55,604 nucleotides of DNA from Chloroflexota bacterium. GTDB taxonomy: Bacteria > Chloroflexota > Limnocylindria > Limnocylindrales > CSP1-4. Positions within the stretch are counted from its first letter, which is position 1. Every line of letters starts with the position of its first letter. Below the pieces are notes generated by a model, which was given only the letters and a program-made list of their open reading frames with translations, was not told where the DNA came from and did not search any database. The stretch covers positions 1 to 55,604 of the forward strand of contig PLZO01000029.1 of assembly GCA_003152165.1 (NCBI GenBank), given 5' to 3'. The position numbers and the translations under genes were made by a program. Positions 431 to 17,564 of the stretch are shown one piece after another.

Positions 431-2539
431 GTGGCCTTGACCAGCCCAGCACGGCCCCGCTACACGATCGGCGTCGACATCGGCGGCACGTTCACCGACG
501 TCGTCGTCCTGGCCGCCGACGGCGCGGTCTCGACGAGCAAGGCGCCGACGACACCGGCTGACTTCTCCGGCGGTGTCCTCGACGCCATCCGCGAGGCGGC
601 CGTCGGGCTGGGTCTCGGGATGGCCGAATTCCTCGCCCGGACGGACCTCGTCAAGCACGGCAGTACCGTCGCTACCAACGCCTTGATCACTCGTCGGGGT
701 GTCACCGTCGGCTTGATCACGACCCGCGGCTTCGAAGACACGACCCTGATCATGCGCGCGGTCGGCCGGGTCGACGGTCTGCCGGAAGAGGAGGTCCGGC
801 GGGTGACGTCGATCACCAAGCCGGAGCCGCTGGTCCCGTCGGAGCGGATCCGGGGCGTCTCGGAACGGATCGATGCGGAAGGCGAGATCGTCGTGCCGCT
901 CGATCACGACGGCGTTCGGGCTGCGGTCCGGACACTGGTCGAGGACCTCAGCATCGACGCCTTGGCGGTGAGCCTGCTCCACGCCTGGCGCAACCCTGTC
1001 CACGAAGCGGCGATCGAGGCGATCGTCAGGGACCTCTACCCGGATGGCCGCCTCTTCGTCAGCCTCGGCAGCCGGTTGAGCCAGGTGGCCGGTGAATACG
1101 CCCGGGCGAACACGGCGATCGCCGACGCATTCGTCGGCCCGACCGTCCGGCGATACCTGTCCAGCCTGGAAGCGCAGCTCCGGGCCGACGGGTTCGCCGG
1201 ACGGATCCTCGTCATGCAGGGCAATGGTGGCCTAACCATTCACGAGCTGGCCACCCCAATCTCCACCCTCCAGTCCGGACCGGCCGGCGGCATGCTCGCC
1301 TCCGCGCTCATGAGCGAGGTGCTCGGCCACCGCCGAGCGATCACCGCCGACATGGGTGGCACGAGCTTCGACGTGGGGATCGTCGACGGTGGCTACTGGC
1401 GCTACGCGGACGAACCGGTCTTCGAACGATTCCGCATCCTCCAGCCGATCACGGGCATCACGTCGATCGGTGCCGGCGGCGGGACGATGGCGCGGGTCGA
1501 CGAGGCGACTGGCCGGCTCCTGGTCGGGCCGGAGAGTGCCGGGGCTCGGCCCGGGCCGGTCTGCTACGGCCTCGGCGGCGAGATCCCGACGGTGACCGAT
1601 GCCGATCTGATCCTCGGCTACATCGACCCGGACTACTTCCTCGGTGGGCGGCAGCGGCTCGATCTGGGGGCCGCCCGGGCGGCCATCCACCAGCAGCTCG
1701 GCAAGCCGCTCGGGCTCAATCTGGTCGAAGCGGCGGCAGGGATCGTCCGGATCGTCGACAGCAAGATGTCCGACCTGATCCGCCGCGAGGTGATCCGCAG
1801 CGGGCGGCGGCCGGATGAGTTCGTCCTGTACGCCTTCGGAGGTGCCAGCCCGGTCCACGCCGTCGGCTATGCCCGCGACCTCGGCGTCCGCGAGATCATC
1901 GTCTTTCCGACATCGCCTGTGTTCAGCGCCTTCGGGATCGCCGGCGCGGATCTCGTCCACACCCGGCTCGCCACCCGCGCCTATCCACTGCCGATGCCGT
2001 CCGCGACCCTCAACGCGGATCTCGAGGCACTCGAGTCGAGCCTGGCTGCCGAGCTCGGCCGGGACGGTCTCGACGAGGCGCCGGAATTCCGCCGCTACGT
2101 CACCCTCCAGTTTCGTCGCCAGAGCACCGGCGAGGAGATCCCGCTGCCCTGGGACCGCTTCACGGACGAACGGGTGGCCGCCCTGCCGGACATCTTCGTC
2201 GAGCACTACGAGCGGCTCTACGGCAAGGGCATCGCCTATGCGGAGGCCGGGCTCGACATCGCCGGGCTCCGGGTCGATGCCGTTGGCCGTGTCGCCAAGC
2301 CAGAGCTCCGACCGACCGAACCCGGCGTGGTATCGGTCGGCGAGGCGAGGAAGGGCGAACGCGATGCCTGGTTCAGTGGCCGTTTCGTCGCGACTCCCGT
2401 CTACGACGAAGCGCGACTCGGGACGGGTGCGCGCCTAGACGGTCCGGCGATCGTGGAGTCGCCGTTCACCACTGTTGTCGTGCCGCCGGGCGCAAGCCTG
2501 GCCGTCGATCCTTATCGCAACCTCGTGATCCGCCCATGA
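431..2539 (+). CDS. hyuA: Hydantoinase A / oxoprolinase / acetone-carboxylase-beta-type ATPase subunit
   Basis: 702 aa. IGVDIGGTFTDVV and a later DMGGTSFDVG motif are typical of the HyuA family. GTG start after GGGGAG; the stop overlaps the next start (ATGA). Confidence 0.9.
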   Translation: MALTSPARPRYTIGVDIGGTFTDVVVLAADGAVSTSKAPTTPADFSGGVLDAIREAAVGLGLGMAEFLARTDLVKHGSTVATNALITRRGVTVGLITTRGFEDTTLIMRAVGRVDGLPEEEVRRVTSITKPEPLVPSERIRGVSERIDAEGEIVVPLDHDGVRAAVRTLVEDLSIDALAVSLLHAWRNPVHEAAIEAIVRDLYPDGRLFVSLGSRLSQVAGEYARANTAIADAFVGPTVRRYLSSLEAQLRADGFAGRILVMQGNGGLTIHELATPISTLQSGPAGGMLASALMSEVLGHRRAITADMGGTSFDVGIVDGGYWRYADEPVFERFRILQPITGITSIGAGGGTMARVDEATGRLLVGPESAGARPGPVCYGLGGEIPTVTDADLILGYIDPDYFLGGRQRLDLGAARAAIHQQLGKPLGLNLVEAAAGIVRIVDSKMSDLIRREVIRSGRRPDEFVLYAFGGASPVHAVGYARDLGVREIIVFPTSPVFSAFGIAGADLVHTRLATRAYPLPMPSATLNADLEALESSLAAELGRDGLDEAPEFRRYVTLQFRRQSTGEEIPLPWDRFTDERVAALPDIFVEHYERLYGKGIAYAEAGLDIAGLRVDAVGRVAKPELRPTEPGVVSVGEARKGERDAWFSGRFVATPVYDEARLGTGARLDGPAIVESPFTTVVVPPGASLAVDPYRNLVIRP

Positions 2540-4776
2540 CTGGAACGACTGAGACGACCGCACCTACCCGGATCGACCCGGTCGACTACGAGATCTTCGC
2601 CCACCGGTTGTGGGCGATCGGAGAAGAGGGCCGGATCGTCCTCCAGCGGGTAACCGCCTCGCCGATCGTCGCCCAGGGCGGCGAATGCATGTGCTCGTTC
2701 TACGACGTCGGCGGGACGATGATCCTCGCCTGCTCCGGCCATCTCCGGTTCGCGTCCGCCACTTCGGATGCGATCCGCCGGATGATCGAGTGGTTCGACG
2801 ACGATCCGGGCATCCACGAAGGTGATGAGTTCATCATCAACGACCCCTACGTCGCCGGCTCGCACACCTACGACGTCATGCAGATCGCGCCGATCTTCCA
2901 CGTCGGCCGGCGGGTGGGCTGGATCGCCTCAAGCTCGCACACCTCCGACACGGGCGGAGTTCTCCGCGGCGCCGCCACCGAGATCTTCCACGAAGGGATC
3001 CGAATTCTGGGTCTGAAGATCGTCGAGGGCGGCATCTTCCGACAGGACGTCTTCAAAACCATCGTCGAGCAGTGCCGCGACCCCCATTACGTCGGCATGG
3101 ACATCAAGTCGCGAACGGCGGCCAATGTCGTCTGTGCCCGTGGCTACGCGTCCCTGATCGAGCAGTTCGGGATCGACTTTGTTCAGGCGGCCGGGGCGAA
3201 GCTGATCGCCGACGCGGAAGCGATGGCACGACGCAAGCTGGCATCGATCCCGAATGGCACGTGGCGCAGCCGGATCTACGGCTCGGCCCGGAATCACGCC
3301 ACTCGGGCGTCCGATCCGTACCAGGTCATCTGCACGGCGACGAAGCGCGGCGACGAACTCGAGCTCGACTTCGCGGGATCCAGCGACCAGCTGACGAGCG
3401 ACCAGAACTCGACCCTGCCGAGTACGACCGCGCACGTCGCCATCGCCCTGACCAATCAGCTGTTTTGGGACGTGCCGTGGAGCGATGGTCGCCTGGCGCC
3501 CGTCCGGATCATCGTCCCGGAAGGCTCGGCCCTCAACTGCCGCTTCCCCGCGGCCTGCGGGCGGTCGCCGCGGATCGGCCAATACGTCGTCGAGGCGGTC
3601 CGCGAGTGCCTGACGAAGATGCTCTTCGCGGCCGGCCATGACGACGACATCAACGCCAGTTGGGGCGCCTTCTGGTACCTGGGCGGTCCAGGCTTCTTTT
3701 ATGGCGGCCACAATCGCCGCGGCCTGCCGAACCCGCAGGGCCTCTACGACATCCACGGCGGCGGCCTCGGCGCCGCCCCAACCCGCGACGGTGTCCCCAC
3801 CGGCGGCCAGATGAACATCCCGTCGGGCGGCATCAGCGACGTGGAGCGGGTCGAGCTCCAGTACCCGTTCCTCTACTTCAGCCGGAACCACGCCGTCGAC
3901 GGCGGTGGGGCCGGACGCTGGAACGGCGGGACCGGCAGCGCCCGCCTGCTGATGGTCCATGGGTCGCAGGACCTGTCGGTGGACTACGCTCCGTACGCCG
4001 GATTACCGCATGGGGCATTCGGGTTGTTCGGCGGCTATCCCGTCGGTACGGGGGGCCTGCGGGCGATCCTCGAACCTGCGGCCGGGTTCCGCCAAATGCT
4101 TGCCGACGGCTCGTATCCGGCCGACGCGACCGAGGCGACCGCCGACGAGATCGCCCGGGTCTCGCTGCCGCCAGAGGGCTCCGGTCGCGTGCCGGTCCCG
4201 GAGGGCCATCTCCTGTCGGACTTCACCCAGGGCGGCGGCGGCTATGGCGATCCGTTGGATCGCGAGGCGGAGGCCGTCGTTCGCGACGTGCGCCGTCACG
4301 TCGTCTCACGCCGTAGCGCGGACGTGATCTACGGTGTGGTCCTCGACGAGCAGGGGAGCCTCGATGCCGCGGCGACGGACGCCCGGCGGGTGACCATCCG
4401 CGCCGAGCGCCGGACAGGAGTGCGGTCGGCGATGTCGGCGACCGCGGGTAGCCCAACCGATGCCGCGCCGGACGGTCCGCTCCTGCGCTTCCACGAGACG
4501 CTCGAGATCGTCGGGACCGGGGCCAACGCGGCCGTCCGCTGCCGCCGTTGCGGGGAAGGACTCGGCCCGGCGACCGACAACTACAAGCGCTACGCCCTCC
4601 GCCGTGACCGCCCGCTCGACGAGCTAGCGGGCCGCGCCATGCCGGATGGTAGTGCGTACCGGGCGGTCCTGCGTGAATACGCCTGTCCCGGTTGTGCCAC
4701 GCTCCTCCAGGTCGATGTGTGGTGCGCGTCGCTCGGTGGTGAGGAGGACCTGTGGGACATTCGGATCGATCGCTGA
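2536..4776 (+). CDS. hyuB: Hydantoinase B / oxoprolinase-type subunit with a C-terminal acetone-carboxylase-gamma-like Zn-ribbon extension
   Basis: 746 aa. The HyuB core (INDPYVAGSHTYDV ... GGGGYGDPLDR ... YGVVLD) is followed by about 135 extra residues (nt ~4369-4773) carrying CRRCGE ... CPGCATLLQVDV. Confidence 0.85.
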   Translation: MTGTTETTAPTRIDPVDYEIFAHRLWAIGEEGRIVLQRVTASPIVAQGGECMCSFYDVGGTMILACSGHLRFASATSDAIRRMIEWFDDDPGIHEGDEFIINDPYVAGSHTYDVMQIAPIFHVGRRVGWIASSSHTSDTGGVLRGAATEIFHEGIRILGLKIVEGGIFRQDVFKTIVEQCRDPHYVGMDIKSRTAANVVCARGYASLIEQFGIDFVQAAGAKLIADAEAMARRKLASIPNGTWRSRIYGSARNHATRASDPYQVICTATKRGDELELDFAGSSDQLTSDQNSTLPSTTAHVAIALTNQLFWDVPWSDGRLAPVRIIVPEGSALNCRFPAACGRSPRIGQYVVEAVRECLTKMLFAAGHDDDINASWGAFWYLGGPGFFYGGHNRRGLPNPQGLYDIHGGGLGAAPTRDGVPTGGQMNIPSGGISDVERVELQYPFLYFSRNHAVDGGGAGRWNGGTGSARLLMVHGSQDLSVDYAPYAGLPHGAFGLFGGYPVGTGGLRAILEPAAGFRQMLADGSYPADATEATADEIARVSLPPEGSGRVPVPEGHLLSDFTQGGGGYGDPLDREAEAVVRDVRRHVVSRRSADVIYGVVLDEQGSLDAAATDARRVTIRAERRTGVRSAMSATAGSPTDAAPDGPLLRFHETLEIVGTGANAAVRCRRCGEGLGPATDNYKRYALRRDRPLDELAGRAMPDGSAYRAVLREYACPGCATLLQVDVWCASLGGEEDLWDIRIDR

Positions 4777-5987
4777 GCAACGTCGCCGCCGCGACGGCCG
4801 TCGCGGCCGCCACCGGCGCCCCGCTCCGCGGCGTCCGCGTCCTCGAGCTGGCCAGCTATGTCACGGGGCCCTACGCCTCGGCACTACTGGCGGACATGGG
4901 CGCCGACGTGGTCAAGGTCGAGGAGCGGACGCAAGGTGATCCATTCCGTGGCTGGGGCAAGGGCGGCTACAGCCCCACGTTCCGCTCCGTCAACCGCGGC
5001 AAGCGCAGCCTCGCGATCGACCTCCGGACGGACGCCGGCAGGGAGGCCGCCCAGGCCATCGCGGACCGTGCCGACGTCCTGATCGAGAACTACCGACCGG
5101 GGGTCGTCGATCGGCTGGGTCTTGCCTACGCCTCCGTCCGGGCCCGCAACCCGCGCATCGTCTACTGCTCGATCTCCGGTTTCGGGTCCAGCGGCCCGTA
5201 CCGCGACCGGCCCGGGTACGACACCGTGGGCCAGGCAATGAGCGGGCTCCTCGGTCTGCTGACCGACTTCGAGGCTCCGAAGGCGATGGGTATCTCACTG
5301 TCGGACCACATCACCGGGATCTTCGCTTGTACCGGGATCCTGGCCGCGCTCGTCGGTCGAGGTGCGACGGGCCCAGGCCGCCGTCTCGAGACGTCGCTCC
5401 TCCAGGCGACGACGGCCTTTGTCGCGGAGAACGCCGCCCGCTACTTCGACGACGGCGAGGTTCCCAGCCGGGCGACGCGGGCTCGAATCGCCCAGGCCTA
5501 CGCCTTCGTCGGCGGTGACGGCGGGGCGTTCGTCATCCACCTGTCCTCACCCCCGAAGTTCTGGCAGGGTCTGACGGAAGCTGTCGGCCGGACCGACCTC
5601 CGGGACGACCCGCGGTTCGTCGATCGTGCCGCCCGCGTCCATCACTACGACGAGCTCCAAGCGATCCTCGACGGGATCTTTGCAACGGAGCCGCGCCGGA
5701 CCTGGCTGGACCGACTCGAGGCGAGCGACGTCCCAGCCGGTCCGATCAACCGGCTCGACGAGGTCTTCGACGACCCCGGTGTCCAGGCGCTGGATCTCAT
5801 CCAGACAGTCGTCCATCCGACGGCCGGGCCCATGCGCCTCGTCGGCAGCGGGGTCACGCTCGAGGGTCATGACGAACGGACGATCGGGCCGCCGCCGCGC
5901 CTCGGCGAGCACAGCGAAGCGATCCTCCGCGAGGTCGGCTACACGGATGAGGCGATCGCAGGGCTCCGGGCCCGTGAGGTGATCTGA
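4752..5987 (+). CDS. Family III CoA-transferase (CaiB/BaiF type)
   Basis: 411 aa. The N-terminus LRGVRVLELASYVTGPYASALLADMGADVVKVE and ENYRPGVVDRLGL are classic for the family. GTG start after GAGGAGGA. Confidence 0.9.
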   Translation: MGHSDRSLSNVAAATAVAAATGAPLRGVRVLELASYVTGPYASALLADMGADVVKVEERTQGDPFRGWGKGGYSPTFRSVNRGKRSLAIDLRTDAGREAAQAIADRADVLIENYRPGVVDRLGLAYASVRARNPRIVYCSISGFGSSGPYRDRPGYDTVGQAMSGLLGLLTDFEAPKAMGISLSDHITGIFACTGILAALVGRGATGPGRRLETSLLQATTAFVAENAARYFDDGEVPSRATRARIAQAYAFVGGDGGAFVIHLSSPPKFWQGLTEAVGRTDLRDDPRFVDRAARVHHYDELQAILDGIFATEPRRTWLDRLEASDVPAGPINRLDEVFDDPGVQALDLIQTVVHPTAGPMRLVGSGVTLEGHDERTIGPPPRLGEHSEAILREVGYTDEAIAGLRAREVI

Positions 5988-5989
5988 CG

Positions 5990-6751
5990 ATGCGGACGAA
6001 GCTGGGCAAGGCCGAATCGGATCGGGTGCTCGTGCGGGGGATCGATCTCACCGCCGAGCTGCTCGGTTCGACCACATACACGGAGATGGTCGGCCTGATG
6101 CTTCTAGGCCGGCGACCGACGGCGGCGCAGACACGGATGCTCGACGCCCTGCTCGTCGTCCTCGTCGAGCACGGCCTGGTCAAGCCCGTCGTGGCGGCCA
6201 GGTTCGTCTATAGCAATGCGCCGGAGTCGCTCCAGGCCGCCGTCGCCGCTTCGCTCCTCGGCGCCGGGAGCCGGCACCTGGGCTCGTCGGAATGGTGCGC
6301 CATGGTCCTCCAGGATGCGCTCGCAGCCGGCTCGACCGACGAGATCGAGGCGGTCGCCGTCCGGATCGTCGACGAACATGCCGCCAAGAAGGAGCGGGTG
6401 CCCGGGATTGGTCATCGGACCCACGCCGGCGGCGACCCCCGCGCCGAGCGCCTGTTCGCGATCGCCCGTGAGACCGACAGCTACGGCCGTTACTGCGCCC
6501 TCCTCGAGCGCGTCTCGGCCCTTGCCTCGGAGCGGGGCGGCCGGCTCCTGCCGGTCAACGTCACGGGGGCGATCGCCGCGATCGCGAGCGACATGGGATT
6601 CCGCTGGCAGATCACCCGGTCGTTCGCCCTGATCGGACGCGTCCTCGGAGCCCTGGCCCACATCCAGGAGGAGATGGACGACCCGATCTCCGACGAACTG
6701 ATCCGCCTGGTCCAGCGCTCGGTCGACTACGAGCCCGACCCGAGCGACTGA
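5990..6751 (+). CDS. Citrate-synthase-fold protein, citryl-CoA lyase-like (short form)
   Basis: 253 aa. LVVLVEHGL ... GAGSRHLG ... VPGIGHRTHAGGDPRAERL resemble the catalytic core of citrate synthase and Ccl without the large N-terminal domain. Confidence 0.7.
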   Translation: MRTKLGKAESDRVLVRGIDLTAELLGSTTYTEMVGLMLLGRRPTAAQTRMLDALLVVLVEHGLVKPVVAARFVYSNAPESLQAAVAASLLGAGSRHLGSSEWCAMVLQDALAAGSTDEIEAVAVRIVDEHAAKKERVPGIGHRTHAGGDPRAERLFAIARETDSYGRYCALLERVSALASERGGRLLPVNVTGAIAAIASDMGFRWQITRSFALIGRVLGALAHIQEEMDDPISDELIRLVQRSVDYEPDPSD

Positions 6752-6754
6752 AGA

Positions 6755-7819
6755 TCAGGCGAGGACCGGCTGCGGTTCGCCGACCCTGTCATGGCCGGGA
6801 CCAACGGCTTCCTCACCGGCGACCGGACCATGCTCCACCCAGGCCGCCTCGATAGCCACCGGGGGGTGATAGCCGGCCACCCGGCGCATGAGCCGACGGA
6901 TCCGGAGACCCTCGAGCGGGCCCAGGGCGTAGAGCGGCATTCGTGTGAGCCAGACGGCACTGCCGAGGCTGACGGCATCGGCGCCGGCCCAGAAGAACTC
7001 GCGACAGTCGTCGAAATCCCGGATCCCGGCGGTCGCGATGATCGGCAATCGGATCCCGGCGTCGCGCAGCTCGGCGACGACGCGCAGGCCGATCGGTTTG
7101 ATCGCCCGGCCGGAGATGCTGCCGAAGCGGTTCTTCATGAACGGCTCGCCGTTCTCCGGATCCACTCGGAGTCCCTTGACCGCGTTGATCGCGGTCAAGG
7201 CCGCGATGCCCCTCCGTTCGGCTAGTTTGCCCTGCTCGACGTAGTCCTCGTCCGGCGACAGCTTGAGGATCACCGGGTGGCGCGACAGCGGGACCGCCTG
7301 GGCGAGGATCTCCTCGAGGATCGTCTCGAACGGGAAGTTGACGTTGTGGCAGGAGACGTTGAACTCGACCGCAGCGATATCACCCGGCTTGGCCCGCCGG
7401 TTGACCGTCTCGACGAGGGTGCACAACTCCTCGGCCGAGAACCCGCCGACGGAGATGATCCGGTTCTGGTCGCTCGTCCGCGGGTAATACTCGTCGAAGT
7501 ACGCCTCGATCCCGATGTTGCACCAGCCGAAGGCGTTCATCCAGCCGCCGTCGACGCGTCGGAGGGCCTTGGCGTAGAGCCGGAGCATCGCCGGGAACTC
7601 GGTCAGGCTCCAGTCGTCGCGGAGGCTGAAGTGACCTTCGCGCGGCTCGACGGTCAGGGTCCGGGTCGTGACCGCGCCGAACCCGTCGAGCGGGACCCAT
7701 TGGGCGATTGGGCTCAGGCCGTACAGGATCAGCTTCTTCTTCGAAGCCCCGTAGCCGAGCATACTGGCCGAGGTGAGAAGGCGGTTGCGAAGCTGGATCC
7801 CGTTGAGGTCGATTGTCAT
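6755..7819 (-). CDS. Class-1 dihydroorotate-dehydrogenase-fold flavoprotein, divergent paralogue
   Basis: I start it at MTIDLNGIQLRNRLLTSAS (ATG 7817-7819) rather than the longer track ORF. AAVEFNVSCHNVN and GSISGRAIKPIGLRVV...IIATAGIRDFDD...AGADAVSLGSA parallel the PyrD motifs seen at 21107-22063. It has an atypical N-terminal half and a C-terminal tail. Confidence 0.7.
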   Translation of the reverse strand: MTIDLNGIQLRNRLLTSASMLGYGASKKKLILYGLSPIAQWVPLDGFGAVTTRTLTVEPREGHFSLRDDWSLTEFPAMLRLYAKALRRVDGGWMNAFGWCNIGIEAYFDEYYPRTSDQNRIISVGGFSAEELCTLVETVNRRAKPGDIAAVEFNVSCHNVNFPFETILEEILAQAVPLSRHPVILKLSPDEDYVEQGKLAERRGIAALTAINAVKGLRVDPENGEPFMKNRFGSISGRAIKPIGLRVVAELRDAGIRLPIIATAGIRDFDDCREFFWAGADAVSLGSAVWLTRMPLYALGPLEGLRIRRLMRRVAGYHPPVAIEAAWVEHGPVAGEEAVGPGHDRVGEPQPVLA

Positions 7820-7829
7820 GACCGGAAGC

Positions 7830-8063
7830 CTACCCGGCGCGCCAGTCGGCCGTGATGGAGCGGGGGAGCGTCGTGCTCTCCTTCGGCTCGCCGCACTTCT
7901 CCTTGAACTCTCTGCGCAGATCGTCAAGGATGTGGCGCAGGTCCCGATAGCGCTCGCCGCCGACACCGCCCTGGCTGACCTTGATCCAGAGGCTTTCGAA
8001 CTCGGCCTGGAGCGTGTCGATCTGGGCCTGCATCGCCTCGCAGTCCGTCATCGTTTCGGCCAT
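7830..8063 (-). CDS. Small hypothetical protein (77 aa, predicted helical/coiled-coil)
   Basis: Strong GC3 codon bias. It ends 10 nt before the DHOD-like start. I recognise no family. Confidence 0.5.
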   Translation of the reverse strand: MAETMTDCEAMQAQIDTLQAEFESLWIKVSQGGVGGERYRDLRHILDDLRREFKEKCGEPKESTTLPRSITADWRAG

Positions 8064-12610: not shown

Positions 12611-13432
12611 CTAGGCGGCCGCCCAGCGCGTCCATCTCGCGTCGAGCAGGCGCATAAGGACGTCGAGCACCAGGGCGAGGGCGACCACCACGAGAATGAC
12701 GGCGAAGACCTTGACGGCCGCGAACTCTCCGCCGAACGTCTCGATCAACCCGCCCAGGCCGTAGATGGCGATGAACTGTTCGCCGTTGATCATGCCCTTC
12801 ACGGCCCGGCTCAGGCCGACCCGAATGGTCGCCAGTACAAGCGGCAGTGCCATGGGTACAACGACATACCGAGTGCGTTGCCAGCGACTTGCCTGGAAGG
12901 ACTCTGCCATCTCCATCAAGGCAGAGTCCCGCTCGAGGAAGGCGGTGTGGAAGTTAAGGGCCATGTAGAAGAAGCAGTAGACGAAGATCACCGCCAGCCT
13001 AGTGAGGTCGCCAATGCCGAAGACGGCCAGGAAGACCGGTACCAGGGCGATCGACGGCAGCAGGAAGAACGCGTAGATGTAAGGCCCGATCGCCAGGTCG
13101 ACCAGCTCGAACTCAGCCATCAGGAACGCGATGACGAAGCTCGCCAGGAGTGCCGCGGCGAAGCCGATGGCAAGCGCCTGGACGCTGTCCGCGAGCTGGG
13201 CGAGGATGAGCCCCTGGTTGATGAGGTCGATAAGCGCCCCAACGCACGCGCTGAAGGGCGGTAACCAAGACAGGCCCAGGACACGACCGAGGAGCTCCCA
13301 AGCCAGGAGCCCGCCGAGGAGGCTGCCGATCTCAACGAGGGGTCCCGGCGTCGAAGTTACTCTGGACTTGCCGGACGGGTGGCCCATCCGGCCAAGGGCA
13401 GAACGTCTCGCGTTAACCCTTGCAATGCCCAT
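12611..13432 (-). CDS. ABC transporter permease (NitT/TauT-type)
   Basis: I start it at MGIARV (13430-13432), just after the ATPase stop. Multi-TM with the motif EMAESFQASRWQRTRYVVVPMALP. Confidence 0.85.
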   Translation of the reverse strand: MGIARVNARRSALGRMGHPSGKSRVTSTPGPLVEIGSLLGGLLAWELLGRVLGLSWLPPFSACVGALIDLINQGLILAQLADSVQALAIGFAAALLASFVIAFLMAEFELVDLAIGPYIYAFFLLPSIALVPVFLAVFGIGDLTRLAVIFVYCFFYMALNFHTAFLERDSALMEMAESFQASRWQRTRYVVVPMALPLVLATIRVGLSRAVKGMINGEQFIAIYGLGGLIETFGGEFAAVKVFAVILVVVALALVLDVLMRLLDARWTRWAAA

Positions 13433-13433
13433 G

Positions 13434-14222
13434 TCAGGCCACCACGTCGCTCGAATCGACCGCGTCGCGCGTTTGGGTCCGCCTGAGCTGCTCCCATAGG
13501 TGTTCGCGGAGGCGTTGGAACTCCAGGGAGGTGGTGATCGAGCGGTCACGAGGGCGGTCGAACGGGACCTCCAGGTACTCCTGAACCACGCCCGGATGGC
13601 CCGTCAACAGCAAGACACGATCACTCAGCAGCAGCGCCTCCTCCATGCTGTGCGTCACGAAGACGATCGTCTTGTGCGCCTCCTGCGTGATCCGCAGCAA
13701 CTCCTCCTGCATGAGCAGGCGCGTCTGCTCGTCCAGGGCCGCGAAGGGCTCGTCCATTAGCAGGATCGCCGGCTCCACGGCGAGCGCCCGCGCCAGGCCC
13801 ACGCGCTGCTGCATGCCGCCCGAGAGCTGCCGCGGGAAGAAGTTCTCGAAGCCCTGGAGCCCCACCAGCTGGGCCAGCTGGAGTGCCTGCTTGGACCACA
13901 TCGCCTTTGGCACACCCCGCAAACGCAGCCCGAAGCCGATGTTGTCGAGCACCGACATCCACGGCAGCAACGAGAAATGTTGGAAGACGACGGCCCGGTC
14001 GGGACCCGGCCCCGACACCTCCTTGCCCTCCACTTGGATGCTGCCGCCATCGTGGTCGACGAGGCCTGCGAGGATCCGCAGAAGCGTCGTCTTGCCACAT
14101 CCGCTAGGGCCCAGGATTGACACAAATTCGTTGTCCCGGACCTCAAAGCTGACATCGCGCAGCACTGGCACCCCTCCGACCTTGCTGGCGAACGTCTTGT
14201 TCAGCCCGGTGACGGTGATCAT
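13434..14222 (-). CDS. ABC transporter ATP-binding protein (NitT/TauT-type)
   Basis: Walker A GPSGCGKTT, signature LSGGMQQRVGLARA, Walker B ILLMDEPF. Confidence 0.95.
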   Translation of the reverse strand: MITVTGLNKTFASKVGGVPVLRDVSFEVRDNEFVSILGPSGCGKTTLLRILAGLVDHDGGSIQVEGKEVSGPGPDRAVVFQHFSLLPWMSVLDNIGFGLRLRGVPKAMWSKQALQLAQLVGLQGFENFFPRQLSGGMQQRVGLARALAVEPAILLMDEPFAALDEQTRLLMQEELLRITQEAHKTIVFVTHSMEEALLLSDRVLLLTGHPGVVQEYLEVPFDRPRDRSITTSLEFQRLREHLWEQLRRTQTRDAVDSSDVVA

Positions 14223-14235
14223 GCGGTGTGCCTTT

Positions 14236-15039
14236 CTATACCGATGGTGGTTGGAGCCTGCGCTCCAAGCGTCGCATCCCGGAGCTGATCAAGGTTGCCT
14301 CGACGAGCAGGACGACGACGACGGCGAAGACATGGTCGCTCGCATTGGCGGCGCGGTAGGTCAACAACAGGAGTCCGATCCCGGATGACAGCAGCAGCAA
14401 CTCCCCTAAGACCATGCCGGCGAACGCACGGCCAAGCCCGATACGGAGCCCCGTCGCGATCGCAGGCAGGGCGCCCGGGATCAGCACGTAGCGCCAGAGG
14501 TTCAACTCGTTCGCGCCGTACGAGTGGGCCATCTCCACCAGTCGAGGATCCACACTGCGGATCCCTGCGCGCGTGTTGACCACGATGTAGACGACCGTAA
14601 ACACCATCACCAGTAGCACGCCGGCCGAGAGGCCGAACCCGATCATCATCACGATGATCGGAAGAAGGGGTGCAGCCGGCATCACGACAAGCAGCGAGAC
14701 GTAGGGCGCAGCCGCACGATCGATGAACAAGTGCCGGCCCATCACCAGGCCCAGTGGCACCGCAATCACCGCCGAGATGACGAAGCCGATGATCATCGTC
14801 AGATTGGACCGCAGGAGCGGCTCCCAGATGGCACCGCCGACGACGATGTCCACGAACGCGGAGACTGTGGCCGTAAACGTCGGCAATAGGATGTTGTGGG
14901 CGTCGGCCGCTCCGAGCTGCCAGATGATGGCGACAATGGCCAAGAAGGCGAGCGGCGGGGCCACCCTCCAGAGCCCACTCGAGCTCCGGAGGGCCGAGCG
15001 CCGCGTACCCTGCTCTAGGGCGCCTCCACTCTGAGTCAC
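14236..15039 (-). CDS. ABC transporter permease (second TMD)
   Basis: 267 aa, multi-TM, with EMAHSYGANELNLWRYVLIPGALP. GTG start. Confidence 0.85.
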   Translation of the reverse strand: MTQSGGALEQGTRRSALRSSSGLWRVAPPLAFLAIVAIIWQLGAADAHNILLPTFTATVSAFVDIVVGGAIWEPLLRSNLTMIIGFVISAVIAVPLGLVMGRHLFIDRAAAPYVSLLVVMPAAPLLPIIVMMIGFGLSAGVLLVMVFTVVYIVVNTRAGIRSVDPRLVEMAHSYGANELNLWRYVLIPGALPAIATGLRIGLGRAFAGMVLGELLLLSSGIGLLLLTYRAANASDHVFAVVVVLLVEATLISSGMRRLERRLQPPSV

Positions 15040-15054
15040 AGAACCAGGGACCGG

Positions 15055-16107
15055 CTACGGGGTCGAAGCTTGCTGGAGAAATGAGGTGTTATCGACCTGA
15101 GCAGCCGACAGACCAAGCGCGATGCCGCCGTACTTCACGCCGAACTGGATGGTAAAGTTCATCGCGGCATCGGTGAAGGCGAGCGTCGGGTCGTAAATAC
15201 CTTGCTGGTACTCAAGCACGATGGCCGCCTGGGTTGGAGCGTCATACGTGATGTTGTTTTCCTTGGCCGGGGCCGCCATCAGGCTCGGGTTTGCCAGCGC
15301 GTCCTTGTAGCCCTTCATCAGTCCTTTGAGGAAAGCGACGACGACCTCGGGATGGGCCGCCGCGAAGGCGTCGTTGACCACGAAGGTCGTGCTCAGGTAG
15401 CCCTTGAGCGAGGGGTCGGCAGCGAAGTTCACGAGGACGTGGAACTTGCCCGGCGCCTGAGTATTGATATTGACGTCATCGAGGGGTGTTTCCATGGTCG
15501 CATCGAGCTGGCCAGCGACCATGGCCGACGCGCGGACCTCCGACCCGGAGATGTATATGGGCTTTATGGCCGTCTGACTCGCGGCGGAGCAATTGTTCTG
15601 GATCCAATAGTCCGCCAAGGCGGTGGTCACGCCGCCGGGGCTGTTGAGCCCCCAGCGCTTCCCGACCAGGTCGTCGCACTTGGTGAGGGCATTTGTGGCT
15701 ACTACGTCCCAGGCTATCAACGACTCGAGCCCGATCACGTGGATCTTGGCGCCGGCCTGGATGGCCGAGAGGGCCGCCGTGGTCGCGCCATCCACGATGT
15801 CCACGTCGCCCGCGGATAGGGCGCCGAATGCAACCTCGGGGGTAGTGAAGAAGGTCGTCGTGGCATGCCAGCCTACCTTGTTCATCTCATCGAAGGCCAG
15901 GAGAGTAGGCATGTGGCTGGAGTCCGGCGAAGAAGTAAAGCCCAATTTGATCGTCCCCGTGACCGGAGTCGCCGCCGCCGCCGGCGTCGCCGAAGCGCCG
16001 GCGCTCGTGGGCGCTGCGGTCGGGTTGGGGGTGGCCGAGCCACCGCAGGCCGCCACTGCCAGGACGGCCGTGAGACAGAACGCCAGGACGCGATGTTTCC
16101 TGATCAT
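15055..16107 (-). CDS. ABC transporter substrate-binding lipoprotein (NMT1/THI5/TauA-like)
   Basis: I start it at MIRKHRV, 10 nt after AGGAGGA. Lipobox LAVAACGG followed by an Ala/Thr/Pro linker. Confidence 0.85.
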   Translation of the reverse strand: MIRKHRVLAFCLTAVLAVAACGGSATPNPTAAPTSAGASATPAAAATPVTGTIKLGFTSSPDSSHMPTLLAFDEMNKVGWHATTTFFTTPEVAFGALSAGDVDIVDGATTAALSAIQAGAKIHVIGLESLIAWDVVATNALTKCDDLVGKRWGLNSPGGVTTALADYWIQNNCSAASQTAIKPIYISGSEVRASAMVAGQLDATMETPLDDVNINTQAPGKFHVLVNFAADPSLKGYLSTTFVVNDAFAAAHPEVVVAFLKGLMKGYKDALANPSLMAAPAKENNITYDAPTQAAIVLEYQQGIYDPTLAFTDAAMNFTIQFGVKYGGIALGLSAAQVDNTSFLQQASTP

Positions 16108-16139
16108 GATCGCCATTCCTCCTGCATTGGGCAGCACGG

Positions 16140-17564
16140 TCAGGCGACCGGCTTGCCAAACTCACCGGCAACATCACGACGGATCCAGGTCACGGGGTCG
16201 GGAGCGTAATCTCGGTCGTAGTCCCCGGGATAGTTCATGCCCGGGATCGCCGGGACCCAGTCGTAGGCTAGGAGGTCGTCGGGGTTCGCGATGAGCGACG
16301 CGAGGCGACGGACCGCCGGGTCGTCCAGGACGGTGAGCCGTCCGCGGTCGATCAACTTGATCCACTCGCCGGTCTCCCGATCCTTGATCTTGTAGTCCGC
16401 GAAATAGGCGTGCACGTGGGCCATGTGCTTGATCGGGACCTGCTGCTCCTTGCCGAACTTGATGAACTCGGGGTCGTCGTGCTCGGCGCCGAAGCCGAAG
16501 TGGATGACGCCCGCGCGGTAGCGCTCGTTGCCGCCGCCGTACCAGGGGGTGGCCGTGTGCCACAGGGTGTCGACCGCGCGGAACGTCTTCGGGTTGGCGC
16601 CGATTGTGGCGTCGTTGAGGAAGGCGTAGCCGGGTCCGGGATAGGCCGGGTACTGGACGTCCTTGAAGCGCTCGACGATATCCTTGAAGCGCCGGCCGTA
16701 CTCGCCGCCGCCCAATATCGAGGCGACCTTGCCGCCCTTGACCTCGAGCTCCATGCGTGGGAAGAAGCCGGTGTGGTTGACGGTCCCCGCGATCACCCCG
16801 TTGATGGTCGGGTAGTGCTTGGCCGCGATCGGGGCGAACTTGCGCAGGCTGTCGATGCGGTTGCCACCGAAGGCCGGCCGGACCTGGGCGAACCTGACCG
16901 CCTCGATGGTCGTGCCGATGATGTGCCACGGGATCCACGAGCCCTGTCGCCAGAGCTGCGCCTCGTCGACGCTGACATCCCAGCTGAGGTCGGTGCCCTC
17001 CGGGTCCGTGATATGGACGGCCGACGCCCGGGCGAAGAGATCGACGAGCTTGCCCTCGAGCAGACGCTGGATCTGGACCGGGAAGTTCGTGTAGCGCGCG
17101 AGCAGGTCCTCGCGGCGTCGATACATCCAGTTCGCCCGGAACTTGCTGCCGATGGCCATCTTGTAGTGGCCCTCGCCCGCGTCCCCAGCGTAGATCTGGG
17201 TGAATTCCGGGTGGTCCTCGACTAGCTTGAGGAGCGCGTCCTGCTCGACCCGTTCCCCGGCCGAGATGGTCGTCTCGACATGGGCGTCCGATAGCTCGCG
17301 CCAGCCATCGGCGGCGGAGAAGTCGCCGGTCGGCAGGCCGAGGCTCGACCACTTCACGTGGGTCACCTGGCTCGCACCCGCGCGACGCATCGCGTCGGCG
17401 ATCAGCTCGAAGATCGCCTCATCCTGATCCTCGGTCGTCAGGACGACGATGTTGGCGCCGTTGTCGATCGGGCCCAAGACCCCTCGACCGCCGACCCGCT
17501 GGACAGCGGCATCCGCCACCGCCTCGAGCTCGCCCTGGCTGACCGCGCTGTTCGCGTCGCCCAT
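16140..17564 (-). CDS. Conserved-looking protein of unknown function; weak resemblance to the M29 aminopeptidase-T / NicX fold
   Basis: Clear coding bias across the 528-aa track ORF. The start is uncertain (ATG 17564 or 17630). Segments NIVVLTTEDQD..., AVHITDPEGTDLSW and GVIHFGFGAE...HMAHVHAYF loosely parallel NicX/AmpT. It is the first gene of the ABC operon. Confidence 0.6.
   Translation of the reverse strand: MGDANSAVSQGELEAVADAAVQRVGGRGVLGPIDNGANIVVLTTEDQDEAIFELIADAMRRAGASQVTHVKWSSLGLPTGDFSAADGWRELSDAHVETTISAGERVEQDALLKLVEDHPEFTQIYAGDAGEGHYKMAIGSKFRANWMYRRREDLLARYTNFPVQIQRLLEGKLVDLFARASAVHITDPEGTDLSWDVSVDEAQLWRQGSWIPWHIIGTTIEAVRFAQVRPAFGGNRIDSLRKFAPIAAKHYPTINGVIAGTVNHTGFFPRMELEVKGGKVASILGGGEYGRRFKDIVERFKDVQYPAYPGPGYAFLNDATIGANPKTFRAVDTLWHTATPWYGGGNERYRAGVIHFGFGAEHDDPEFIKFGKEQQVPIKHMAHVHAYFADYKIKDRETGEWIKLIDRGRLTVLDDPAVRRLASLIANPDDLLAYDWVPAIPGMNYPGDYDRDYAPDPVTWIRRDVAGEFGKPVA

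Follow-up and report, generated by a model that had tools for sequence, protein, structure and literature searches.

What pathway is served by an operon that joins a HyuA/HyuB-type enzyme to a family III CoA-transferase and a citryl-CoA-lyase-like protein, and in which order do these enzymes act? The window, which is the whole 55,604-nucleotide stretch analysed (contig C24:1-55604), carries the four genes on the + strand at 431–2539, 2536–4776, 4752–5987 and 5990–6751 in its list of open reading frames. The sequence-only reading had described them as linked through a shared ATGA, then a second overlap of 25 nt, and finally a spacing of 2 nt, and these coordinates and junctions are confirmed. 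The stop codon of hyuA and the start codon of hyuB share the ATGA at 2536–2539, as read from the sequence. The CoA-transferase gene starts with GTG at 4752, directly downstream of a GAGGAGG Shine-Dalgarno sequence, and overlaps hyuB, whose stop lies at 4776, by 25 nt; no alternative start codon is seen in the sequence ahead of its conserved domain. The citrate-synthase-fold gene begins with the ATG at 5990, 2 nt after the CoA-transferase gene. Pfam and NCBIfam assign all four families, as had been proposed, together with the helix-turn-helix of an IclR-family regulator. The composition of the window gives no island signal.

The identical four-gene order is present in all 10 genome loci with enough flanking sequence, which belong to Chloroflexota and Actinomycetota MAGs at 64–93% identity, and also in the metagenome loci L066, L067, L069 and L074. 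Because the four genes recur in one order in both genome and metagenome loci, the arrangement is not due to chance, and the co-conservation elsewhere that had been set beforehand as a test is borne out by the 10 genome loci and the four metagenome contigs. The genes of the cassette are translationally coupled and co-conserved, and the cassette is conserved in uncultured soil bacteria. Neighbourhoods were read with GC3-based gene calls, and some open reading frames are over-extended in this 70% GC DNA. A literature search found no paper describing the gene combination or the side leads, in agreement with the earlier remark that the combination was not recognised as a described pathway, and the cassette matches no pathway found in the searchable literature.

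A DHOD-fold flavoprotein gene (6755–7966, − strand; Pfam DHO_dh, 2.8e-28) is convergent to the operon. Such a gene adjoins the cassette in L001, L004, L011 and L066 and lies about 9 kb away in L005, and none was seen in the remaining loci of those compared. Since the association is limited to the closest sub-clade, the DHOD-fold protein is probably accessory. A PcaD-like alpha/beta-hydrolase (TIGR02427, 190 bits, below the PcaD model cut-off of 255.85) is encoded beside the cassette in six of 11 close loci and probably in the source genome as well. In L002 and L003 the operon goes on to genes for a crotonase and another CoA-transferase. The cassette encodes no thiolase and no conserved deaminase or aminotransferase.

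The HyuA/HyuB-gamma enzyme

The first gene (431–2539, +) encodes a HyuA-type ATP-binding subunit of 702 residues with the three Pfam domains Hydant_A_N, Hydantoinase_A and Hydant_A_C. The motifs D16IGGTFTD, D307MGGT and G371ARPGP are intact with respect to the ASKHA ATP motifs DxGGTxxD, DxGGT and GxxPGP (PMC8453981), and domains and motifs place the protein among the HyuA subunits of the hydantoinase/oxoprolinase/ketone-carboxylase superfamily. The 746-residue product of the second gene (2536–4776, +) is a HyuB subunit of the same superfamily by its Hydantoinase_B match (1.3e-102) and its metal tetrad, in which E50, H110, D113 and H135 align with E89, H150, D153 and H175 of Acx-alpha. Acx-alpha E89 has a gate role, and Asp occupies this position in other enzymes (PMC8453981); Glu is present in all 82 HyuB relatives read. 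The C-terminus of HyuB carries a fused Cys4 zinc-ribbon tail (CRRC ... CPGC; 4369–4776, +). Its residues 654–728 match Acetone_carb_G with 25.3 bits, above the Pfam cut-off of 21, so the gamma-like tail proposed from the sequence holds, and 19 diverse fusions share C669, C672, C717 and C720 without exception. Small subunits of this kind are specific to Acx/Apc (PMC13677872). In all, 105 protein clusters contain the fusion, which also occurs in at least 396 stretches of metagenome DNA, and this HyuB-gamma branch with its fused zinc subunit is therefore widespread, and it is uncharacterised.

The best solved relatives of HyuA are acetophenone carboxylase (5l9w_B, 4.9e-125), caprolactamase (6yra_A) and acetone carboxylase beta (5m45_B), and acetophenone carboxylase chains are also the best for HyuB, except that the N-terminal third of HyuB has N-methylhydantoinase as its best solved match. 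Both subunits score similarly against lactamases and against carboxylases. The NCBIfam equivalog cut-offs are missed for Apc (ApcC 445 against 1500, ApcA 275 against 1250, ApcD 195 against 1500) and for caprolactamase CapAB (CapA 484.5 against 1000, CapB 154.7 against 1000).

The AcxABC enzymes of Xanthobacter autotrophicus and Aromatoleum aromaticum (5svb, 5svc, 5m45) resemble the cassette enzyme in having one HyuA, one HyuB and a small Cys-rich zinc module, a Glu-His-Asp-His metal site with Glu as the first ligand, and intact ATP motifs. However, the scores against Acx chains are only about 340 bits for HyuA and 158 bits for HyuB, the gamma module of the cassette is fused to the C-terminus of HyuB, and its neighbours are the genes for a CoA-transferase of family III and the Ccl-like protein instead of acetoacetate-converting enzymes. 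The Apc/Rhodococcus Acr type (5l9w; PMC13677872) includes the best-scoring solved relatives of both large subunits and an equivalent of the small zinc subunit, but it has two HyuA-like subunits and an essential epsilon subunit, whereas the cassette has one HyuA and no epsilon-like fifth gene. Taken together, the gamma domain, the Glu gate, the Apc chains as best relatives and the single HyuA as in AcxABC suggest that HyuB is of the carboxylase type. Against this stand the N-terminal match to N-methylhydantoinase, the missed Apc and caprolactamase cut-offs, and the occurrence of the gamma-fused HyuB type in amide-type contexts too. Biotin-free ATP-dependent carboxylases of the HyuA/HyuB type have few known substrates (acetone, butanone and acetophenone).

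More distant HyuA/HyuB-gamma pairs (54–60% identity) are followed by a thiolase-like gene in 13 metagenome loci, with a DUF35 gene next in eight of them. Ltp2–ChsH2 is an aldolase that releases a ketone, and in the one thiolase-like protein examined, that of L119, Gly occupies the putative nucleophilic Cys position and the Ltp2 aldolase (6ok1) is among the best three solved relatives. The thiolase-like and DUF35 genes resemble those of the Ltp2–ChsH2(DUF35) steroid side-chain aldolase, a second type of CoA-ester aldolase of unrelated fold that is linked to HyuA/HyuB-gamma and is absent from the window. The distant pairs are also ringed by uptake genes of the NMT1-type ABC, TAXI-TRAP and TTT families, suggesting that polar or anionic solutes are taken up; such genes in relatives of the cassette argue against acetone as the substrate. 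The second HyuA/HyuB-gamma pair of the source genome is flanked by amidohydrolase and isochorismatase genes, and OCD and M24 genes adjoin other pairs.

The CoA-transferase and the threonine-type citrate-synthase-fold protein

The third gene (4752–5987, +) encodes a family III (CaiB/BaiF) CoA-transferase of 411 residues, in which CoA_transf_3 is matched over its full length (residues 25–388 to profile positions 1–366 of 366, 4.8e-111). Among named models and structures, the closest belong to dicarboxylate enzymes (succinate-glutarate, SUGCT, formyl-CoA:oxalate and YfdE). D185 aligns with the Asp of the YfdE 'SLAD' motif and with the equivalent Asp in four other chains, which we take to be the catalytic Asp that forms the acyl-aspartyl anhydride in family III.

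The 253-residue product of the fourth gene (5990–6751, +) has the short citrate-synthase fold of citryl-CoA lyase, both by profile (NF004868 at 278.5 bits, above its cut-off of 193; 6hxp Ccl, 9.4e-42) and by its AF2 model (pLDDT 94; Foldseek TM 0.87 to 6hxp, 36% identity). The positions of the triad H274, H320 and D375 of pig citrate synthase are taken by His96, His142 and Thr192. The catalytic Asp is replaced by Thr (NVTGA in place of NVDGA) in the window protein and in all 120 close relatives, 119 of which read NVTGAI/V and one a shorter NVTGA, as well as in all 11 HyuB-linked metagenome copies. Because this replacement is clade-wide, the protein cannot be classified as a canonical Claisen-type citryl-CoA lyase: that label, and the complete His/His/Asp set on which it depended, fall. 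According to the titles of their PDB entries, the structures of the ATP-citrate lyase Asp-to-Ala mutants D1026A and D541A contain bound substrates or citryl-CoA; together with Thr192, these mutants make the canonical retro-Claisen step doubtful. The rest of the site is retained. The equivalents of H238, H274, H320, R329 and R401 are kept, with H238, H320, R329 and R401 strictly conserved, so that His96, His142, Arg151 and Arg217, including the oxaloacetate-binding arginines, are in place. Glu79, Tyr74 and Arg71, which are invariant and specific to the Thr-type clade, may be candidate substitutes for the lost Asp; in the alignment, the counterpart of Glu79 in citrate synthase is the structural Asp in the 'SDxY' motif.

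Ccl of Hydrogenobacter thermophilus (6hxp) and the CCL module of ATP-citrate lyase share with the cassette protein the short fold, the two His residues and the oxaloacetate-binding Arg, and Ccl likewise adjoins a CoA-activating enzyme. In contrast to Ccl, the cassette clade has Thr in place of Asp and a CoA-transferase as its partner instead of citryl-CoA synthetase; neither CcsAB citryl-CoA synthetase nor an ATP-citrate-lyase fusion is encoded in the cassette, which is catabolic and patchily distributed and does not belong to the reductive TCA cycle. His/His/Asp is kept in only 21 of 115 sequences of a representative alignment, and in many related clusters the first His is missing as well. 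It is therefore unsafe to annotate this large, mostly triad-less family as 'citryl-CoA lyase', and equally unsafe to infer the reductive TCA cycle from such labels, as MAG studies do. The genes of more remote paralogues are coupled in translation to those for acyl-CoA ligases or CoA-transferases, indicating that CoA esters are the substrates of the family. SdgB, from the salicylyl-CoA pathway of Streptomyces, may possibly be a protein of the citrate-synthase fold that partners an AMP ligase.

Thr-type copies with 52–59% identity occur in five Chloroflexota genomes in which HyuB-gamma was not found (E ≤ 1e-100, top two candidates per genome scored). A role of the Ccl-like protein as an obligate extra subunit of HyuA/HyuB-gamma, comparable to Apc-epsilon, was rejected on this ground. 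The source paper reports no family for Apc-epsilon, a point that was also weighed against such a role.

Order of the reactions

We favour, with a probability of about 0.35, an operon under IclR control that serves the catabolism of a small organic acid: the CoA ester of the acid would be formed and cleaved to a ketone, and the ketone would then undergo ATP-dependent carboxylation. The acid is probably imported as an anion, and the PcaD-like hydrolase may release it from a lactone. The family III CoA-transferase would form the thioester, with acetyl-CoA or succinyl-CoA as the likely donor. The citrate-synthase-fold protein would then cleave a beta-hydroxy (citryl-CoA-like) thioester to acetyl-CoA and a ketone or keto acid, using His96, His142, Arg151 and Arg217 and some substitute for the absent Asp. 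HyuA and HyuB-gamma would finally carboxylate the otherwise inert ketone to a beta-keto acid with ATP and bicarbonate. As judged from the alignments, each enzyme type keeps its cofactor-binding or catalytic residues, the one exception being the Asp that the citrate-synthase-fold protein has lost. In transferring CoA first and then cleaving the ester by a retro-aldol step to acetyl-CoA and an oxo compound, the scheme resembles the citrate lyase cycle and the itaconate pathway (CoA-transferase, hydratase and citramalyl-CoA lyase), which the added crotonase and second transferase of L002 and L003 also recall. However, the lyases of those pathways have the CitE/HpcH fold, and an ATP-dependent carboxylase is not known to be part of them, whereas the cassette has the carboxylase-like HyuA/HyuB.

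The product of a ketone carboxylase is a beta-keto acid, whereas the citryl-CoA-lyase fold cleaves beta-hydroxyacyl-CoA, and so the order proposed from the sequence, with CoA activation and the lyase following carboxylation, needs either a missing reductase or new chemistry; the order of CoA activation, cleavage and carboxylation requires neither. The order beginning with the CoA ester is also favoured because the distant HyuA/HyuB-gamma pairs adjoin the Cys-less Ltp2-like aldolase genes. Nevertheless, carboxylation as the opening step agrees just as well with the gene order, in which hyuA and hyuB lead, and with the PcaD-like enol-lactonase encoded nearby. In that case a keto acid, perhaps released from a lactone by the PcaD-like hydrolase, would be carboxylated to a beta-keto dicarboxylate and converted to its CoA ester, and the Thr-type protein would cleave the beta-ketoacyl-CoA via a hydrate to acetyl-CoA and an acid, replacing thiolase in a non-orthologous lower pathway like that of beta-ketoadipate. 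The IclR-type regulator, as in pca operons, the lack of a thiolase gene in the cassette and the systematic change of a catalytic residue, which suggests altered chemistry, are in line with such a route. We consider it unlikely, since the reaction has no known precedent in the citrate synthase fold and the hydrolase misses the PcaD cut-off. In addition, the Thr-type protein occurs together with the thiolase-like gene and DUF35 in L100, L126 and L131, and a simple replacement of thiolase by the Ccl-like gene was rejected.

Ring opening as the first step, the other variant proposed from the sequence, is possible but doubtful. HyuA/HyuB-gamma would then be an ATP-dependent lactamase of the oxoprolinase, N-methylhydantoinase or caprolactamase type that acts on a carboxylated cyclic amide, and the resulting dicarboxylic or amino acid would pass to the CoA-transferase and the citrate-synthase-fold protein. 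The similar scores against lactamases and carboxylases, the N-terminal match of HyuB, the DHOD-fold reductase adjoining the operon in the closest sub-clade, the amidohydrolase, isochorismatase, OCD and M24 neighbours of other pairs, and uptake systems pointing to a polar substrate all agree with it. There is also precedent in the iaa cluster of A. aromaticum, which like the cassette combines a HyuA/HyuB-type enzyme with a CoA-transferase for a succinate derivative; we take IaaL to be a family III enzyme and ring opening by IaaCE to precede CoA transfer, and we know of no report of a gamma domain in the iaa enzyme. IaaCE is a hydantoinase-like hydrolase (PMC8453981) and IaaL is a phenylsuccinyl-CoA transferase (PMC8360864). 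The later iaa steps, however, are those of a mutase and a dehydrogenase, whereas the cassette has the citrate-synthase-fold protein. A gamma-like zinc domain and a Glu gate are characteristic of carboxylases, the cassette lacks a conserved deaminase or aminotransferase, and an amino-acyl-CoA would leave a site like that of citryl-CoA lyase without an evident role.

The citrate-synthase-fold protein may also not be a C–C lyase at all, being either an acyl-CoA thioesterase, which would perform the hydrolytic half of the citrate synthase reaction, or a non-catalytic CoA-binding or scaffolding partner. The clade-wide loss of the Asp, the scarcity of the triad in the family and the Thr-type copies in genomes in which HyuB-gamma was not found would fit, as would the distant paralogues placed directly after acyl-CoA ligases, as if ligase and thioesterase enclosed a CoA-dependent step between them. 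This is improbable, because a thioesterase straight after a CoA-transferase would be futile and because the strict retention of the H238, H320, R329 and R401 equivalents favours an enzyme that acts catalytically on a hydroxy or oxo acid group.

Within the favoured reading, HyuA/HyuB-gamma is repeatedly linked to CoA-ester C–C cleaving enzymes of unrelated folds, which points to a general, undescribed coupling of retro-aldol cleavage to ketone carboxylation in soil Chloroflexota and Actinomycetota. It is rather unlikely that the Thr-type proteins form a new class of acyl-CoA C–C cleaving enzymes with a relocated or substrate-provided base, which together with a fused-gamma biotin-independent keto-acid carboxylase would make up an unrecognised route by which a keto or hydroxy acid common in soil is assimilated. 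An enzyme of the citrate-synthase fold that works although its catalytic Asp is lost would be interesting for its mechanism. In such a new class, the Thr-type protein might be a beta-ketoacyl-CoA hydrolase standing in for thiolase, for example in a route from levulinate via 3-oxoadipate to acetyl-CoA and succinate; alternatively, a tertiary-alcohol acid might yield acetyl-CoA and a ketone that is then carboxylated.

The IclR regulator and a candidate operator

The regulator gene (3–344, − strand) is divergent from hyuA, as had been noted from the sequence, and is truncated by the contig start. Its N-terminal 114 residues are visible and include the helix-turn-helix (Pfam HTH_IclR, 47.9 bits, 1.1e-12), and the C-terminal part lies beyond the contig start; the orthologue in L010 is complete and carries IclR_C in addition to HTH_IclR. 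Orthologues are located upstream of hyuA in eight of the 10 full genome loci. A candidate operator, TTTCGCATAGCGGAA (337–351), overlaps the iclR start codon and is followed by TTGACA. Within the window alone, its pattern has 2 matches against 1.4 expected, which is not significant. At the matching position, the ATTYC-N7-GGAAY motif is present in L001, L002, L003 and L011, and related ATTCC-N7-GGAAT repeats are found in L007 and L010.

Gene coupling and conservation of the cassette

Four genes lie on the plus strand in a region with a G+C content of 68–72% throughout. Pfam and NCBIfam searches bear out the four family assignments of the sequence-only reading: HyuA (431–2539) with three domains, HyuB (2536–4776) with a C-terminal Acetone_carb_G tail (Pfam, residues 654–728, 25.3 bits against a cut-off of 21), a family III CoA-transferase (4752–5987) with a full-length domain, and a Ccl-like protein (5990–6751) with a half-length citrate synthase domain that scores above the cut-off of the NCBIfam 'citryl-CoA lyase' subfamily model NF004868 (278.5 bits against 193). 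The ORF calls and a reading of the junctions agree on the co-directional arrangement proposed before. HyuA and HyuB are joined by ATGA at 2536–2539, the CoA-transferase starts with GTG at 4752, 25 nt inside hyuB and just behind a GAGGAGG Shine-Dalgarno sequence, and a 2-nt gap separates it from the ATG of the Ccl-like gene at 5990. Sequence reading found no alternative start of the CoA-transferase ahead of its conserved domain. The divergent IclR gene is likewise present, running from 344 on the opposite strand and visible up to residue 114 at the contig start, the window beginning at base 1 of contig C24.

With the 253-residue Ccl-like protein as query, a search of GTDB genomes, one from each species, gave 11 loci from Chloroflexota (Limnocylindrales and Chloroflexia) and Actinomycetota MAGs. 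The order HyuA, HyuB-gamma (HyuB with the fused tail), CoA-transferase, Ccl-like protein is kept in all ten loci with enough flank, at 64–93% identity, and the divergent IclR gene in eight of these ten. When metagenomes were scanned with aligned HyuB-gamma fusions, at least 396 related stretches were found; four of these loci (L066, L067, L069 and L074) hold the complete cassette, with HyuB identities of about 70% or more. The four-gene synteny is thus conserved elsewhere. The distribution is patchy: no Ccl-like gene was found in 23 genomes from the family to which the window belongs, and HyuB-gamma at E ≤ 1e-100 in only 3 of 401 sampled Chloroflexota genomes. Outside the core clade the modules are reshuffled, and in four loci (L073, L130, L136 and L140) a Ccl-like gene with Thr at the catalytic Asp position directly follows hyuB. 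A 76% identical Ccl-like gene lies with a PcaD-like hydrolase gene on a 5-kb contig (L008, DASPHN010000310.1) binned as Candidatus Saccharimonadales, which looks like mis-binning.

A citrate-synthase fold with Thr at the catalytic Asp position

Ccl and the CCL module of ATP-citrate lyase are the closest known systems to the fold of the Ccl-like protein, which is 36% identical to Hydrogenobacter Ccl (PDB code: 6hxp; 9.4e-42); its AlphaFold model (pLDDT 94) superposes on that structure with a TM score of 0.87. His-238, His-274, His-320, Arg-329 and Arg-401 of pig citrate synthase are kept as His-61, His-96, His-142, Arg-151 and Arg-217, but the equivalent of Asp-375 is Thr-192, in NVTGA versus NVDGA in Ccl. 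Thr occupies this position in 120 of 120 close relatives (119 with NVTGAI/V and one shorter match with NVTGA), in all 122 aligned rows including the window, in 52–59% identical copies from five other Chloroflexota genomes, and in 11 of 11 metagenome copies near HyuB-gamma. According to PDB entry titles, Asp-to-Ala mutants of ATP-citrate lyase have been solved with substrates or citryl-CoA bound, consistent with a need for this Asp in the lyase step. With both His kept but the Asp replaced throughout the clade, the protein lacks the complete His/His/Asp set on which the sequence-only reading had made a canonical Claisen-type lyase depend, and by that reading's own standard this assignment is refuted. 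Residues invariant in the Thr-type clade only include Arg-71, Tyr-74, Glu-79, Ser-94 and Leu-97.

Most members of the wider short citrate-synthase family are non-canonical too: of 115 aligned sequences (the window, five close relatives and 109 cluster representatives at 50% identity), only 21 keep His/His/Asp. In paralogues with 41–49% identity, the first His is replaced by Phe or Tyr and the Asp by Thr or Ala, and their genes overlap by 4 nt with those of AMP-forming acyl-CoA ligases (L047:9709–11891, L049:8256–10711 and L053:9936–12297, and similarly L048, L050–L056 and L058); this pair is an uncharacterised module. In L047 it is followed by a VOC-fold dioxygenase-like gene and a mycothiol maleylpyruvate-isomerase-like gene. 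Two remoter copies (34% and 38% identity) come after CoA-transferase genes. As a rule, then, short citrate-synthase-fold proteins come directly after an enzyme that activates with CoA, and this pairing indicates that the family acts on CoA esters. The CoA-transferase of the cassette is complete; its catalytic Asp-185 aligns with the Asp of YfdE and relatives, and its nearest named relatives act on dicarboxylates (succinate-glutarate, SUGCT, oxalate and mesaconate).

The HyuA/HyuB-gamma enzyme and the order of reactions

The three ATP motifs are kept in HyuA, and so is the metal tetrad in HyuB. By alignment, HyuB begins this tetrad with Glu, the equivalent of Glu-89 in acetone carboxylase alpha, whereas acetophenone carboxylase (Apc), caprolactamase and N-methylhydantoinase have Asp there; all 82 relatives read have Glu as well. 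The four Cys of the HyuB tail are invariant, and the fusions form 105 clusters at 90% identity. Homologues of Apc-beta and Acx-gamma are carboxylase-specific, while the large subunits occur in hydrolases too (PMC13677872, 2026). The closest known system is AcxABC, with a similar subunit inventory of one HyuA and one HyuB, the gamma subunit being fused in HyuB-gamma. Acetophenone carboxylase chains score highest for both large subunits with modest margins, N-methylhydantoinase is the best match to HyuB residues 1–255, and neither HyuA nor HyuB reaches an NCBIfam equivalog cut-off. These results place HyuA/HyuB-gamma on a separate branch outside every characterised orthologous group.

Another contig of the same genome carries a second HyuA/HyuB-gamma pair (C161:15450–19912, equal to L145:7451–11913; 48% and 42% identity), with neither a CoA-transferase nor a Ccl-like gene in its vicinity. 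Around this pair lie genes for an amidohydrolase, CoxG, an isochorismatase-family hydrolase and a sugar-type ABC importer, a context like that of amide catabolism. Because of these neighbours, the gamma fusion is no proof of carboxylation.

Recurrent neighbours were also tallied for more distant pairs (54–63% identity). NMT1/SsuA-type binding-protein genes occur in 34 loci (L081, L086, L087 and L103 among them), often between hyuA and hyuB-gamma and in some cases together with permease and ATPase genes. The window itself has an NMT1-type ABC operon (12611–17564) 6 kb downstream of the cassette, and L005–L007 have one near the cassette too. TAXI-TRAP and TTT uptake genes and OCD-family, M24 and zinc-ADH genes also recur. 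In 13 metagenome loci (L119:4136–5329, L103:9402–9833 and 11 more) a thiolase-like gene directly follows hyuB-gamma, with a DUF35 gene (OB-fold and zinc ribbon) behind it in eight and FKBP, SIR2 and MFS genes often next. The one copy examined, from L119, has GGASA at what we take from the thiolase motif to be the nucleophilic Cys position, and so appears to lack this Cys; the solved structures that it matches best are 4u4e, 9myr and the Ltp2 aldolase (6ok1). We infer that HyuA/HyuB-gamma is repeatedly tied to enzymes of unrelated folds, citrate-synthase and Ltp2-like thiolase, that cleave C–C bonds of CoA esters.

The analysis thus shows which enzymes are present, that their ATP and metal sites and the Asp of the CoA-transferase are intact, that Thr systematically replaces the Asp of the Ccl-like protein, and that the genes are coupled and conserved together. 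In the preferred order, an acid would first be converted to its acyl-CoA, which would then be split into acetyl-CoA and a ketone, and the ketone would be carboxylated last. A ketone is the product of retro-aldol lyases and the substrate of ketone carboxylases, which argues for this order, and no unseen reductase is required. For this order, as for any other, we put the chance at about one in three at most. The sequence-only reading had instead placed ATP-driven ring opening or carboxylation before CoA activation and cleavage. This order is possible, through lactam opening or a new hydrolytic cleavage of a beta-ketoacyl-CoA, and we rate it no higher; the gene order and the PcaD-like neighbour favour it, but a beta-keto acid would then enter a fold that cleaves beta-hydroxy thioesters.

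CoA transfer followed by a lyase, as in the cassette, is also the logic of citrate lyase and itaconate systems, and the iaa pathway is a described cluster in which a HyuA/HyuB-type enzyme occurs together with a CoA-transferase. None of these systems, nor AcxABC or Ccl/CCL, unites all these parts, and no description of the gene combination was found in the literature searched.

Flanking genes and a candidate operator

A PcaD-like alpha/beta-hydrolase gene (TIGR02427, at best 190 bits, below the cut-off of 255.85) adjoins the IclR gene or follows the Ccl-like gene in L001, L005, L006, L008, L010 and L011. An 82% identical orthologue, cut by the contig end, lies on another contig of the same genome (C61:8026–8642). 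On C61 a GmrSD-like gene is followed by the hydrolase gene on the minus strand, the same order as in L001, where the hydrolase precedes iclR; at the window start it is iclR that is cut. From this matching order, C61 very probably adjoins the first base of the window, the two contigs probably being separated by a gap of about 0.7 kb.

A conserved palindrome-like sequence, TTTCGCATAGCGGAA (ATTYC-N7-GGAAY), at 337–351 overlaps the iclR start codon, with TTGACA coming after it. Motifs of this type also occur in the intergenic regions of L001, L002, L003, L007, L010 and L011, and several loci have a second, similar motif closer to hyuA. The 337–351 motif is a likely IclR operator and TTGACA the likely –35 box of hyuA.

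In the closest sub-clade only, a DHOD-fold flavoprotein gene is convergent on the Ccl-like gene. In two Chloroflexota MAGs (L002:10851–12856 and L003:8521–10526) the operon is longer: behind the Ccl-like gene come a crotonase-family gene and a gene for another family III CoA-transferase, which shares 46% identity with the first. Two Actinomycetota loci (L009:10719–13007 and L006:15030–17270) have a gene for the large subunit of a molybdopterin hydroxylase (xanthine dehydrogenase family) no more than about 5 kb downstream of the Ccl-like gene. In L009 it converges directly on the Ccl-like gene, whereas in L006 the two share a strand and the hydroxylase gene comes about 4 kb further on.
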